Shown: one piece after another, positions 222 to 34,444 of the stretch
Numbering within the stretch: the first letter of the stretch is position 1
Layout of the letters: every line of letters starts with the position of its first letter
Assembly (NCBI RefSeq): GCF_048403405.1
Contig: NZ_CP183129.1
DNA length: 64,000 nucleotides
Strand: one strand, 5' to 3'
Source of the DNA: Escherichia coli
GTDB taxonomy: Bacteria > Pseudomonadota > Gammaproteobacteria > Enterobacterales > Enterobacteriaceae
Notes under the pieces: model-generated
The model's input: the letters and a program-made list of their open reading frames with translations, nothing else
Told to the model about the DNA's origin: nothing
Database searches by the model: none
Position numbers and translations under genes: made by a program

Positions 222-3125
<2,904 letters not shown>

Positions 3126-3318
3126 TCACAACCCGAAGATGTTTCTTTCGATTCATCATCGTGTTGCGAAAATTTGAGAGACTCACGAACAACTTTCGTT
3201 GTTCAGTGTTTCAATTTTCAGCTTGATCCAGATTTTTAAAGAGCAAATATCTCAAACGTCACCCGAAGATGAGTTTTGAGATATTAAGGCAGGTGACTTT
3301 CACTCACAAACCAGCAAG

Positions 3319-3394
3319 TGGCGTCCCCTAGGGGATTCGAACCCCTGTTACCGCCGTGAAAGGGCGGTGTCCTGGGCCTCTAGACGAAGGGGAC
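3319..3394 (-). tRNA. gltT: tRNA-Glu (UUC) in the 16S-23S spacer
   Basis: Reverse complement reads GTCCCCTTCGTCTAGAGGCCCAGGACACCGCCCTTTCACGGCGGTAACAGGGGTTCGAATCCCCTAGGGGACGCCA, the canonical E. coli tRNA-Glu with encoded CCA. Confidence 0.95.
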
Positions 3395-16831: not shown

Positions 16832-17983
16832 ATGAAAAACAAATTACCGCCATTTATCGAGATTTACCGTGCTCTGATTGCCACACCTTCAATAAGCGCC
16901 ACGGAAGAGGCACTCGATCAAAGCAATGCAGATTTAATCACTCTGCTGGCGGACTGGTTTAAAAATTTAGGCTTCAATGTGGAAGTGCAGCCTGTGCCAG
17001 GAACTCGCAACAAATTTAATATGCTGGCAAGTACCGGACAGGGGGCTGGCGGTTTGTTGCTGGCGGGGCATACCGATACGGTGCCATTTGATGACGGACG
17101 CTGGACGCGCGATCCGTTTACACTGACGGAGCATGACGGCAAGCTTTACGGCTTAGGCACCGCCGACATGAAAGGCTTTTTTGCGTTTATCCTTGATGCG
17201 CTACGCGAAGTCGACGTCACGAAACTGAAAAAACCGCTCTACATTCTGGCGACTGCCGATGAAGAAACCAGTATGGCCGGAGCGCGTTATTTTGCCGAAA
17301 CTACCGCCCTGCGCCCGGATTGCGCCATCATTGGCGAACCGACGTCACTACAACCAGTACGTGCACATAAAGGTCATATCTCTAACGCCATCCGTATTCA
17401 GGGCCAGTCGGGCCACTCCAGCGATCCAGCACGCGGAGTTAACGCTATCGAACTGATGCACGACGCCATCGGACATATTTTGCAATTGCGCGATAACCTG
17501 AAAGAACGTTATCACTACGAAGCGTTTACCGTGCCATACCCCACGCTCAACCTCGGGCATATTCACGGTGGCGATGCATCTAACCGTATTTGCGCTTGCT
17601 GTGAATTGCATATGGATATTCGTCCGCTACCGGGCATGACACTCAATGAACTTAATGGTTTGCTCAACGATGCATTGGCTCCGGTGAGCGAACGCTGGCC
17701 GGGTCGTCTGACGGTCGACGAGCTGCATCCGCCGATCCCTGGCTATGAATGCCCGCCAAATCATCAACTGGTTGAAGTAGTTGAGAAATTGCTCGGAGCA
17801 AAGACCGAAGTGGTGAATTACTGTACCGAAGCGCCGTTTATTCAAACGTTATGCCCGACGCTGGTTCTGGGGCCTGGCTCAATTAATCAGGCTCATCAAC
17901 CTGATGAATATCTGGAAACACGGTTTATCAAGCCCACCCGCGAACTGATCACCCAGGTAATTCACCATTTTTGCTGGCATTAA
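16832..17983 (+). CDS. argE: acetylornithine deacetylase
   Basis: ORF 16793..17983; start most likely the internal [23 protein letters not shown] (383 aa); M20 peptidase family. Confidence 0.85.
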
Positions 17984-18027
17984 AAAAGCAAATCAGGCTG
18001 ATGACAAAGCCATGCAAGTGCACGGAC

Positions 18028-18078
18028 AGTCCCCTCGTCCCTTCGGGGAGAGGGTTAGGGTGAGGGGAAAACCGTGCC
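18028..18078. repeat. GC-rich palindromic intergenic repeat, BoxC-like
   Basis: CCCCTCGTCCCTTCGGGGAGAGGGTTAGGGTGAGGGG; the same family recurs at 33585-33685. Confidence 0.5.
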
Positions 18079-18394
18079 CATACTGACCCGTAAGCGAGTT
18101 TGTCAGCAATCTCAAATGATGCCCAAATGGTAACTACAACTCATAACTCTTTGGTGTTACTTGAGGCGATTTTTTAACATTTCCATAAGTTACGCTTATT
18201 TAAAGCGTCGTGAATTTAATGGCGTAAATTCCTGCTATTTATTCGTTTGCTGAAGCGATTTCGCAGCATTTGACGTCACCGCTTTTACGTGGCTTTATAA
18301 AAGACGACGAAAAGCAAAGCCCGAGCATATTCGCGCCAATGCGACGTGAAGGATACAGGGCTATCAAACGATAAGATGGGGTGTCTGGGGTAAT

Positions 18395-31719: not shown

Positions 31720-32382
31720 ATGGAACTGTATCTGGACACCGCTAACGTCGCAGAAGTCGAACGTCTGGCACGTATATTCCCGATTGCCGGGGTGACAACT
31801 AACCCGAGCATTATCGCTGCCAGCAAGGAGTCCATCTGGGAAGTGCTGCCGCGCCTGCAAAAAGCGATCGGTGATGAGGGCATTCTGTTTGCTCAGACCA
31901 TGAGCCGTGATGCGCAGGGAATGGTGGAAGAAGCGAAGCGCCTGCGCGACACCATTCCGGGCATTGTGGTTAAAATCCCGGTGACTTCCGAAGGTCTGGC
32001 AGCAATTAAAATACTGAAAAAAGAGGGTATTACTACACTTGGCACCGCTGTATATAGCGCCGCACAAGGGTTATTAGCCGCACTGGCAGGGGCAAAATAC
32101 GTTGCTCCGTATGTTAACCGCGTAGATGCCCAGGGCGGAGACGGCATTCGTACGGTTCAGGAGCTGCAAGCGCTGTTAGAAATGCACGCACCAGAAAGCA
32201 TGGTGCTGGCGGCCAGCTTTAAAACGCCGCGTCAGGCGCTGGACTGTTTACTGGCAGGATGTGAATCCATCACCCTGCCCTTAGATGTAGCGCAACAAAT
32301 GCTCAACACCCCTGCGGTAGAGTCAGCTATAGAGAAGTTCGAACACGACTGGAATGCCGCATTTGGCACTACTCATCTCTAA
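31720..32382 (+). CDS. fsaB: fructose-6-phosphate aldolase 2
   Basis: 220-aa [36 protein letters not shown]… (transaldolase family). Confidence 0.9.
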
Positions 32383-32392
32383 AGGAGCAATT

Positions 32393-33496
32393 ATGGACCG
32401 CATTATTCAATCACCGGGTAAATACATCCAGGGTGCTGATGTGATTAATCGTCTGGGCGAATACCTGAAGCCGCTGGCAGAACGCTGGTTAGTGGTGGGT
32501 GACAAATTTGTTTTAGGTTTTGCTCAATCCACTGTCGAGAAAAGCTTTAAAGATGCTGGACTGGTAGTAGAAATTGCGCCGTTTGGCGGTGAATGTTCGC
32601 AAAATGAGATCGACCGTCTGCGTGGCATCGCGGAGACTGCGCAGTGTGGCGCAATTCTCGGTATCGGTGGCGGAAAAACTCTCGATACTGCCAAAGCACT
32701 GGCACATTTCATGGGTGTTCCGGTAGCGATCGCACCGACTATCGCCTCTACCGACGCACCGTGCAGCGCATTGTCTGTTATCTACACTGATGATGGTGAA
32801 TTTGACCGCTATCTGATGTTGCCAAATAACCCGAATATGGTCATTGTCGACACCAAAATCGTCGCTGGCGCACCTGCACGTCTGTTAGCGGCGGGTATCG
32901 GCGATGCGCTGGCAACCTGGTTTGAAGCGCGTGCCTGCTCTCGTAGCGGCGCGACTACCATGGCGGGTGGCAAGTGCACCCAGGCGGCGCTGGCACTGGC
33001 AGAACTGTGCTACAACACCCTGCTGGAAGAAGGCGAAAAAGCGATGCTTGCTGCCGAACAGCATGTAGTGACTCCGGCGCTGGAACGCGTGATTGAAGCG
33101 AACACCTATTTGAGCGGTGTTGGTTTTGAAAGCGGCGGACTGGCGGCGGCTCACGCGGTGCATAACGGCCTGACCGCTATCCCGGACGCGCATCACTATT
33201 ATCACGGTGAAAAAGTGGCATTCGGTACGCTGACGCAGCTGGTTCTGGAAAATGCGCCGGTTGAGGAAATCGAAACCGTAGCTGCACTTAGCCATGCGGT
33301 AGGTTTGCCAATAACTCTCGCTCAACTGGATATTAAAGAAGATGTCCCGGCGAAAATGCGAATTGTGGCAGAAGCGGCATGTGCAGAAGGTGAAACCATC
33401 CACAACATGCCTGGCGGCGCGACGCCAGATCAGGTTTACGCTGCACTGCTGGTAGCCGACCAGTACGGTCAGCGTTTCCTGCAAGAGTGGGAATAA
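32393..33496 (+). CDS. gldA: glycerol dehydrogenase
   Basis: ORF 32354..33496; start most likely the internal [24 protein letters not shown] (367 aa); Fe-ADH family. Confidence 0.9.
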
Positions 33497-33579
33497 CCTA
33501 CTCCAAACTCCCGGCTTGTCCGGGAGTTTGAGAGTGCAGGCAAAGTGGCTCACTCGTCACTGCGGGCATGTTTTTCCCC

Positions 33580-33690
33580 CTCGCCCTTTCAGGGAGAGGG
33601 TCGGAGTGAGGGTAAATATTCGCCCCGGAGCTGGCCTGTTCCCCTCACCCTAACCCTCTCCCCAAAGGGGAGAGGGGACTGTTCGAGCAC
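33580..33690. repeat. inverted pair of GC-rich BoxC-like palindromic repeats
   Basis: CCCCTCGCCCTTTCAGGGAGAGGGTCGGAGTGAGGGT and, in opposite orientation, CCCCTCACCCTAACCCTCTCCCCAAAGGGGAGAGGGG. Confidence 0.5.
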
Positions 33691-33826
33691 TTTTTATACG
33701 TTATCACCCGTCTGAAACTCCCACGTTGTTCAGGAATTTTTTATCCGCTTCTGGACATTTTCTCTACAGAACAATCGTTAGCCCGGAAGGTCGAATCTGT
33801 GACTCTTATTTTCACGGACGAACCAG

Positions 33827-34444
33827 ATGAAAGCTTCACTGGCGCTGGTCAGCCTGCTAACGGCATTTACCAGCCACTCCTTAAAATCTCCCGCCATTCC
33901 ACCAACCGTGGTACAAATTCAGGCCAACACCAACCTTGCCATCGCAGACGGTGCCAGACAGCAAATCGGCAGCACGCTATTTTACGATCCGGCGTATGTG
34001 CAGCTTACCTATCCTGGCGGTGATGTCCCGCGAGAACGCGGCGTATGTTCCGATGTGGTGATCCGCGCCTTGCGCAGCCAGAAGGTCGATTTGCAGAAAC
34101 TGGTTCACGAAGATATGGCGAAGAATTTTGCTGAGTACCCGCAAAAATGGCAGTTAAAGCGCCCGGACAGCAACATCGATCACCGTCGGGTGCCTAATCT
34201 GGAAACCTGGTTTAGCCGCCATGATAAAACACGCCCCACCAGCAAGAACCCCGGTGATTATCAAGCGGGCGATATTGTCTCCTGGCGATTAGATAACGGG
34301 CTGGCGCATATTGGGGTGGTGTCAGATGGCTTCGCCCGCGACGGTACGCCGCTGGTGATACATAACATTGGCGCAGGCGCGCAGGAAGAAGACGTGCTGT
34401 TTAGCTGGCGGATGGTGGGGCACTATCGGTATTTTGTTAAATAA
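33827..34444 (+). CDS. yijF: DUF1287-family protein YijF (signal peptide)
   Basis: 205-aa ORF MKASLALVSLLTAFTSHS…; K-12 synteny. Confidence 0.8.
   Translation: MKASLALVSLLTAFTSHSLKSPAIPPTVVQIQANTNLAIADGARQQIGSTLFYDPAYVQLTYPGGDVPRERGVCSDVVIRALRSQKVDLQKLVHEDMAKNFAEYPQKWQLKRPDSNIDHRRVPNLETWFSRHDKTRPTSKNPGDYQAGDIVSWRLDNGLAHIGVVSDGFARDGTPLVIHNIGAGAQEEDVLFSWRMVGHYRYFVK

Follow-up and report, generated by a model that had tools for sequence, protein, structure and literature searches.

Within a 64,000-nucleotide stretch of Escherichia coli DNA (RefSeq assembly GCF_048403405.1, contig NZ_CP183129.1; hereafter the window), three copies of the short intergenic repeat BoxC are found, two of them inverted between gldA and yijF and one between argE and ppc. 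Units of this kind are physically associated with genes for YcjD-type proteins of the DUF559 family, an association of which we are confident. The reading we favor makes BoxC units the cis partners of YcjD-type nucleases, and we give it a probability of roughly 0.45 to 0.5; recognition, cleavage and copying of the units by the enzyme are what we infer from the association. The function and origin of BoxC have been open since 1992, and the embedding of YcjD-type genes in units links this question to a second unanswered one, the function of DUF559, while supplying a testable candidate enzyme for a repeat that has been an orphan for 30 years. If true, REP/RAYT would have a second counterpart that works by a different mechanism, and a protein family of more than 24,000 clusters, so far without a function, would gain one.

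BoxC is the earlier name of the element later called PIT (potential intrastrand triplex) and then TMECO, for which the consensus is 5'-CCCTCNCCC-N3-6-GGGNGAGGG-N3-GGGNGAGGG-3' with one mismatched stem pair permitted (Holder et al., 2015, PMC4666352). K-12 has 23 copies, of type A (second loop TTA) or type B (CCG), with one unit of each type in inverted arrangement at five sites (PMC4666352), and most E. coli carry about 20-30 copies; as BoxC, the family was given as 56 bp long with about 32 copies (Petrillo et al., 2008). The unit is 36 nt long, comprises one C-rich and two G-rich blocks, and can be folded as a hairpin. The BoxC/PIT literature also includes work by Bergler in 1992, Bachellier in 1996, and Hoyne and Maher in 2000 and 2002. 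The 2015 study deals with 63 TMECO loci, the K-12 copies occupy 18 loci, and Salmonella is reported to lack the repeat. A scan of the window with the TMECO consensus gave three units (consensus matches at 33578-33612, 33642-33676 and 18032-18066) and no further copy:

33578-33613, plus strand: BoxC/TMECO unit, type-B-like with second loop TCG, CCCTCGCCC-TTTCA-GGGAGAGGG-TCG-GAGTGAGGG-T, read as CCCTCGCCCTTTCAGGGAGAGGGTCGGAGTGAGGGT
33642-33677, minus strand: BoxC/TMECO unit of type A with second loop TTA, CCCTCTCCCC-TTT-GGGGAGAGGG-TTA-GGGTGAGGGG, read as CCCTCTCCCCTTTGGGGAGAGGGTTAGGGTGAGGGG
18032-18067, plus strand: solo BoxC/TMECO unit of type A with second loop TTA, CCCTCGTCC-CTTC-GGGGAGAGGG-TTA-GGGTGAGGGG, read as CCCTCGTCCCTTCGGGGAGAGGGTTAGGGTGAGGGG

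Judged by their sequence, these three units belong almost certainly to the E. coli BoxC/PIT/TMECO family, because they match the consensus, lie one or two edits from K-12 units, are intergenic and multicopy, and include an inverted A+B pair with a gap of about 28 nt. A likeness to BoxC-type repeats had been proposed in a first-pass annotation of the window, and it is borne out by consensus fits with 1, 0 and 1 mismatches in the order listed. In unit 33578-33613 the mismatch is a GAG in the third block where the consensus has GGG, a change expected to make the third strand of a triplex weaker; this unit, a hairpin with the usual G.A mismatch, is 2 edits from K-12 TMECO #10, and unit 33642-33677 (-) is a perfect hairpin 1 edit from K-12 TMECOs #7, #11 and #15. 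The pair, correctly described there as two opposed units, forms an inverted repeat of 39 nt, with arms at 33577-33615 and 33639-33677 that are 79% complementary and separated by 23 nt, and is enclosed by the gldA open reading frame (32354-33496) and yijF (33827-34444), both on the plus strand, and it joins a B-like (+) to an A (-) unit across a 28-nt gap, matching K-12 pairs 10+11 and 12+13. The single unit reported after argE lies 49 nt 3' of the argE stop codon (17981-17983) and 5' of ppc, all three units being intergenic. The motif GGGGAGAGGGTNRGGGTGAGGG, given as common to them, occurs with up to 3 mismatches at exactly three places in the window, 18045-18066 (+), 33591-33612 (+, 2 mismatches) and 33642-33663 (-), with 0 expected by chance in 100 dinucleotide-preserving shuffles. 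The genome-wide copies by which the annotation proposed to check its claim are also present: the 178-bp segment holding the pair matches at a median of 17 places in an E. coli genome. The range is 1-31, there being copy-poor genomes with 1-3 places, and four genomes having the gldA-yijF allele at 98.9-100% identity show 14-18. Over 601 bases around the pair, the window is 100% identical to several complete E. coli genomes annotated with gldA next to yijF. The window copies thus have in common with BoxC/PIT/TMECO the three-block consensus, the A/B loop types, inverted A+B pairing, the gap of about 28 nt, intergenic position, about 20 copies per genome and strain variability. Neither window locus is on the published K-12 TMECO list; the repeat family at these loci is already known, and the sighting in itself is routine.

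DUF559 genes beside BoxC-type units

At two loci of Mitsuaria chitosanitabida, a (+) and a (-) unit stand 399 bp apart, and the interval is a 139-aa open reading frame with a DUF559 domain (Pfam E = 2e-38), such that the ATG follows unit(+) by about 25 nt and the stop codon is overlapped by unit(-). E. coli has one DUF559 gene, ycjD, beside fabI (envM), the region where BoxC was first noticed. The ycjD gene of K-12 ends (...RRSPSP*) within a partial inverted unit, with TMECO #9 about 165 nt downstream, and that of strain SCU-313 is 12 nt longer (...SPSPQPSP*), encodes the 121-aa full-length form of ST69 type, and has a complete unit with 0 mismatches over its stop codon, the first 23 nt of which are identical to the 33578 unit of the window. 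A degenerate duplicate of the gene's own 3' end and a decayed unit are also seen 3' of ycjD. Among 120 YcjD homologs, nearly all of those from other enterobacterial genera (Enterobacter, Klebsiella, Kluyvera, Lelliottia, Leclercia, Phytobacter, Franconibacter, Scandinavium) end in ...PSPRPSP*, the peptide that a type-B unit encodes when read in reverse complement.

So that the repeat itself should not bias the sample, further loci were retrieved with protein sequences only. Each of six further loci obtained in this way has units that touch the DUF559 gene or lie no more than 60 bp from it. A generic three-block detector located 16 units in 46.8 kb of protein-first loci, all at most 168 bp from a DUF559 gene; this 168-bp zone makes up 12% of the 46.8 kb, and the per-locus fractions multiply to 7e-8. 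At all 10 DUF559 loci read as DNA, which come from Proteobacteria (E. coli, Enterobacter, Mitsuaria) and from five metagenomic contigs, at different chromosomal sites, the low-copy gene has inverted units of a genome-dispersed kind beside it, although in the enterobacterial genes these stand on the 3' side only. Loci with units beside the gene are the following, with coordinates given within each fetched locus:

L048 5881-6360, L049 1113-1592, and, from the sapF-fabI region, L131 2206-2761 and L133 280-862: DUF559 gene flanked by, or ending in, units
L134 4001-4420: Enterobacter asburiae, gene at yggW-yggN instead of sapF-fabI; a B(-) unit covers the stop codon and an A(+) unit follows after 11 nt
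L137 3001-3383: Enterobacteriaceae bacterium BIT-l23, with the stop codon followed immediately by a fused palindromic unit
L136 3974-4390, L138 2958-3499 and L139 887-1314: three metagenomic contigs, with unit(+) at the gene start or ahead of it and the stop codon covered by unit(-); the block sequences vary
L140 about 2950-3384: metagenomic contig, gene (3001-3372) between glcD and glcE; units arranged as in L136, L138 and L139
L141 1-604: metagenomic contig, "tail-less" homolog; (-)(+) composite on both sides of the gene

The glcD and glcE genes of L140 belong to an apparent glycolate oxidase operon, a position of the sort that a selfish insertion would occupy.

The imprint of the units is also visible in the proteins. 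In a search of 1.84 billion representative proteins the DUF559 family comprises 24,680 clusters, and 77 of 118 diverse short representatives have unit-encoded peptides (PSPxPSPxxGEG, PHPNPLP, LTPTLSRxRER, GEGWGEG, ERVRVR) in N- or C-terminal extensions, compared with 2 of 118 in the domain core under a conservative pattern. No publication linking DUF559 or YcjD to repeats was found in the searchable library, which does not cover subscription literature.

A strict-consensus scan of one genome per species, which is not a census, listed matches from four genomes, E. coli not being among them: a metagenome-assembled genome (MAG) of Methylomirabilota, Ca. Contendobacter, one unclassified MAG, and M. 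chitosanitabida with more than 100 stretches. The matches listed reach well beyond the Proteobacteria reported in 2015. Among them, those of the Methylomirabilota MAG include (+)(-) pairs about 30 nt apart, like the E. coli pairs, and M. chitosanitabida has at least 172 units in 0.9 Mb of sampled loci, mostly in (-)(+) pairs with variable gaps.

A putative nuclease partner

The DUF559 domain is a recognized Vsr-like PD-(D/E)XK fold. Catalytic-type residues D49, E60-x-D62, H66, D73 and R76 are at least 98% conserved and all present in YcjD, Pfam assigns DUF559 and MTES_1575 (PD-(D/E)XK) and not an HUH Y1 (IS200/IS605-like) transposase, and a YcjD profile detects Vsr at E = 1e-5 (PMC1189080). 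The only solved related structure is 3HRL, a structural-genomics entry. Caulobacter VsrA, which has a DUF559 domain, causes DNA damage in vivo (PMC12907096). YcjD shares fold and superfamily with Vsr and the Vsr-like endonucleases, and the D...ExD...H motif is conserved; the difference is that the Vsr gene is linked to a cytosine methyltransferase and the enzyme acts on T:G mismatches in duplex DNA, whereas YcjD-type genes are associated with repeat units. In the loci retrieved by protein, gene calling gave no methyltransferase.

In the mechanism we propose, BoxC units would be the cis elements in a REPIN/RAYT-like system whose partner would be a YcjD-type DUF559 (Vsr-like PD-(D/E)XK) nuclease. 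The gene typically stands between two inverted units with their G-rich ends facing it, and the gene-less B(+)-28 nt-A(-) composites of E. coli share this topology; it is because the unit(+)-gene-unit(-) arrangement equals that of the gene-less composites, a relation like the one between REP-flanked RAYT genes and gene-less REPIN doublets, that the units may be read as cis partners. The nuclease could recognize the folded unit, either as a hairpin or as a triplex with the conserved mismatch, in single-stranded or extruded DNA. Nicking at the folded unit would promote copying, gene conversion or local rearrangement, and would also account for the reported instability around BoxC repeats. Dispersed solo and paired copies, including those of the window, would then be non-autonomous derivatives of the nuclease system, and the constant flanking of nuclease genes by the repeat family may explain where the repeats come from. 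That this is an undescribed and widespread repeat-plus-nuclease system, in which a DUF559 endonuclease acts on folded units and generates, maintains or reshuffles the gene-less copies, is a proposal we make tentatively, holding its chances to be just short of even.

Short GC-rich hairpin repeats in intergenic regions, inverted doublets, a fixed spacer, location at gene 3' ends and polymorphism are shared with REP/BIME and REPIN repeats and their RAYT (TnpA_REP) genes, as is a low-copy gene between inverted units of a genome-dispersed kind, and REP/BIME is the alternative occupant at both window loci. BoxC differs from REP in having no GTAG/CGTC-tagged palindrome and in a third block that gives it triplex potential. 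The BoxC-associated gene encodes a Vsr-like PD-(D/E)XK nuclease, whose action on BoxC we infer, whereas RAYT is an HUH Y1 transposase. DUF559 is not a RAYT, and the proposed system is therefore at most an analog, and not a member, of REPIN/RAYT.

Several observations weigh against cis partnership. VsrA, the one DUF559 protein studied in vivo, is linked to a cytosine methyltransferase motif and not to repeats (PMC12907096), and the TMECO motif is reported to have no association with transposons, phages or plasmids (PMC4666352). Enterobacterial DUF559 genes have units at the 3' end only, as a (-)(+) pair, and not on both sides. In the 5,426 complete E. coli genomes to which all gene and allele counts refer, ycjD with units is present in 3,375 and missing from 38%; strain O157:H7 is without ycjD and has kept its BoxC copies, therefore any dependence on ycjD is not immediate. 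There is no DUF559 gene in the 64-kb window by tblastn. A repeat-free (empty) allele was not found at gldA-yijF, argE-ppc or ygfF-gcvP, and so insertion boundaries, target-site duplication and recent movement are not readable at these sites; the allele frequencies could be the outcome of ancient insertions that recombination has since reshuffled. In O157:H7 a TetR-family regulator gene stands 5' of fabI in place of ycjD, and a 2026 paper describes the site lacking ycjD as occupied by the eefRABCD efflux operon.

The same data bear on a reversal of cause and effect, in which DUF559 genes are selfish, homing-type nucleases that insert into existing BoxC pairs, the repeats spread otherwise, and the nuclease neither makes nor maintains them. 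Precedents for insertion into such repeats exist, since IS621 and IS1397 insert into REP/BIME. The gene sits exactly at the spacer position of a (+)(-) pair, it is found at different chromosomal sites including the inside of an operon (glcD-glcE), and in E. coli ycjD is a presence/absence gene, BoxC copies persisting in lineages that do not have it. An active homing gene would not be expected to show so few and so diverged copies, however: the three DUF559 copies of Mitsuaria are 78% and 68% identical, and E. coli has one. Nor does insertion into pairs fit the enterobacterial genes with units on the 3' side only, and it leaves the origin of the repeats unexplained. We consider this account unlikely.

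A composite element and its alternative alleles

The two gldA-yijF units are, as read from alignments, the core of a larger composite of about 180 bp with conserved arms and spacer:

33527-33717, no strand: composite BoxC element, consisting of left arm, B unit, spacer, inverted A unit and right arm (blastn against K-12)
33614-33641, no strand: 28-nt spacer AAATATTCGCCCCGGAGCTGGCCTGTTC, with similar sequence in other copies

This extent is assigned because a 191-nt homology to another locus coincides with the indel boundaries, the composite being also the segment that differs from the K-12 allele (33532-33709). By blastn, window 33527-33717 is 84.8% identical over 191 nt to the K-12 ygfF-gcvP copy, and window 33572-33728 is 84.2% identical over 158 nt to the K-12 alx-sstT copy, while the 178-bp query aligns to other loci over its positions 10-163 at 85-89% identity. 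In an alignment with four K-12 pairs, the spacer is 27-28 nt long and similar in ygfF-gcvP, alx-sstT and fepB-entC, and 17 nt long and different at hrpB-mrcB; conservation outside the units is clearest in the ygfF-gcvP and alx-sstT copies. A MITE would have terminal inverted repeats and a target-site duplication, as defined against an empty site; here neither arm is an inverted version of the other, and T(T/C)TGA, present at both borders of the composite and also in the ygfF-gcvP copy, may be part of the element. Relics of a DUF559 gene, looked for by eye in the 28-nt spacer and the arms, were dropped as a reading because these stretches are too short. The published accounts of BoxC/PIT/TMECO readable here deal with a unit of 34-37 nt (56 bp for BoxC), without the composite of about 180 bp, the alternation with BIMEs or the gene link.

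At both window loci, the repeat-bearing segment is a presence/absence cassette polymorphism, and the commonest alternative allele holds REP/BIME. The composite occupies gldA-yijF in 640 genomes, the K-12 (BIME) allele in 4,590, and other alleles in about 195. In K-12 the gldA-yijF interval contains two REP sequences, recognized by the REP consensus, and the allele's median of 22 matching places per genome is consistent with this. Relative to K-12, the alleles diverge at 33531/33532 and rejoin at 33709/33710, so that exactly the composite is exchanged between them. Between argE and ppc, other strains have a BIME of 2 REPs, or of 6 as in K-12, between the same boundaries. The window segments themselves do not fit the REP (PU) palindrome consensus, and the K-12 REP alleles do not align with them. 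The features that delimit the variable segments are the following:

17986-18148, no strand: variable argE-ppc segment with the solo unit, in 284 of 5,426 genomes
33504-33530, plus strand: perfect 11-bp hairpin, 8 nt after the gldA stop codon, at the left border of the variable segment in both alleles
33715-33739, plus strand: degenerate copy of the gldA hairpin in direct orientation (76%), with a T-run after it, at the right border in both alleles

Since BoxC segments and BIMEs are alternative alleles at identical breakpoints, these 3'-end intergenic sites behave as exchangeable cassettes, and the alternation is of use for strain typing and for the study of intergenic repeat turnover. Homologous recombination of the flanking genes probably spreads the alleles. 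The composite, the presence/absence polymorphism at both loci, and REP/BIME as the commonest alternative allele had all escaped the first-pass annotation. The solo unit and the A half of the composite have in common a 5' flank of about 30 nt (GTGCNCGNACAGTC beside the C-block), also present at the unit near ycjD, which fits the 56-bp definition of BoxC. The argE copy is a solo A-type unit with part of the composite's 5' flank, and we interpret both it and the gldA-yijF copy as passenger repeat DNA in intergenic cassette sites close behind the 3' end of a gene, with nothing dedicated to gldA, yijF or argE.

Variability of this order also bears on whether an enzyme need be invoked at all. The units might act by DNA structure alone, as triplex, H-DNA or cruciform without a cognate enzyme, stalling replication or stimulating recombination and being kept or tolerated as generators of variability. 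A role in local variability has in fact been proposed for TMECO by Holder et al. (PMC4666352), who found that isolated strands of K-12 units form an intrastrand purine-motif triplex in vitro by circular dichroism and nuclear magnetic resonance (Tm 70-82 C), that polymerase stops at TMECO in primer extension, and that TMECO loci vary more than control sites; the hypervariability of both window loci agrees with this. In vivo footprinting, on the other hand, did not support a stable triplex (PMC4666352), and structure alone explains neither the conserved arms and spacer of the composite nor the units abutting DUF559 genes at different sites in unrelated genomes. We judge it rather improbable.

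Some further details of these sites can be recorded. The 25-nt direct repeat 33505-33529/33715-33739 (76% identical) brackets the gldA-yijF variable segment in both alleles, and its right-hand hairpin copy (33715-33739) may be the original terminator, duplicated at the first invasion of the site. In E. coli 99_0849, a copy of IS621, an IS110-family element that targets REP sequences, stands 5' of yijF, where other strains have the BIME allele, and strain 7_12_15B has a rearranged gldA-yijF allele with extra REPs, in which gldA is not upstream. The sequence CTCAAATGATGCCCAA at 18111-18126 closely resembles the inter-REP motif CTCAAACGATGCCCAA of the six-REP argE-ppc BIME of K-12, a likeness which suggests that a BIME was once present at argE-ppc in this lineage too. 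Of the K-12 composites, the one at ygfF-gcvP (positions 939-1128 of its locus) resembles the window copy most and lies directly against the terminator hairpin of gcvP. It is absent together with the whole of ygfF in E2348/69 and O157:H7, the two such genomes read, where a REP follows bglA instead, and the K-12 allele over this stretch is missing from about 2,400 of the 5,426 genomes.

The predicted RNA hairpin

The long hairpin that the first-pass annotation thought possible for the pair is indeed predicted: positions 33570-33700 fold as RNA into one long imperfect hairpin of about 100 nt with a free energy of -63.7 kcal/mol (z = -5.06), a stability that 0 of 200 shuffles reached. Additional copies genome-wide and a stable predicted structure, the two findings on which that annotation had staked its claim, are thus both in hand. 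The further step it took, from hairpin to terminator or mRNA stabilizer, is not supported. A dedicated RNA role of the pair is unsupported, because there is no T-run at the hairpin, no covariation, no Rfam family, and published assays are negative.

A promoter/terminator scan found no terminator at the pair, nor any at the solo-type hairpin, and the T-run closest to the stem (33691-33695) starts 13 nt beyond it; only a weak 5-bp stem with a T-run in the left arm (33553-33566) was returned, and it is unconserved in other copies. Five composite copies read by eye showed no covariation between the two units, and the column that decides B-A pairing, where the C-block of B has G/T and the A unit has A/C, forms a pair in 2 of the 5, with no compensatory pattern. 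An Rfam 15 scan of 33300-33900 (E <= 10) gave nothing above gathering, the best match being a miRNA-precursor model at 28.5 bits against a threshold of 83, a level of generic hairpin noise. PIT elements are described as having neither promoter nor terminator activity by Hoyne and Maher, as cited in PMC4666352. In having a GC-rich hairpin past a stop codon, the pair is like rho-independent terminators and 3' stabilizing hairpins; it differs from the former in the lack of an adjoining U-tract, the imperfect stem of about 100 nt, the occurrence of units in both orientations, and these negative assays.

It could still be argued that read-through from gldA folds the units into the hairpin of about 100 nt, which would terminate transcription or block 3'-to-5' exonucleases as REPs can. 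The predicted hairpin is strong and lies on the sense strand downstream of gldA, the solo unit is likewise just past the argE stop codon, and the alternative alleles at both loci contain REPs, elements whose class is documented to stabilize mRNA. Beyond the absence of a U-tract right after the hairpin and of compensation in the deciding column, such a role sits poorly with units that occur in both orientations relative to genes, no strand bias being reported (PMC4666352), and with K-12 pairs in all gene contexts, including that between the divergent fepB and entC. The gldA gene also has its own perfect hairpin upstream of the paired units. An RNA element thus seems to us quite improbable, protection of the gldA 3' end less clearly so than termination, and the cis-partner reading remains the one we prefer.

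The solo unit is predicted to fold as well, at -31.8 kcal/mol for 18020-18080 (z = -2.96). It is bracketed by a 6-bp inverted repeat (GCACGG at 18020-18025 and CCGTGC at 18072-18077) that lengthens the predicted hairpin, and the 5' part of this repeat belongs to the flank conserved beside type-A units (GTGCNCGNACAGTC).

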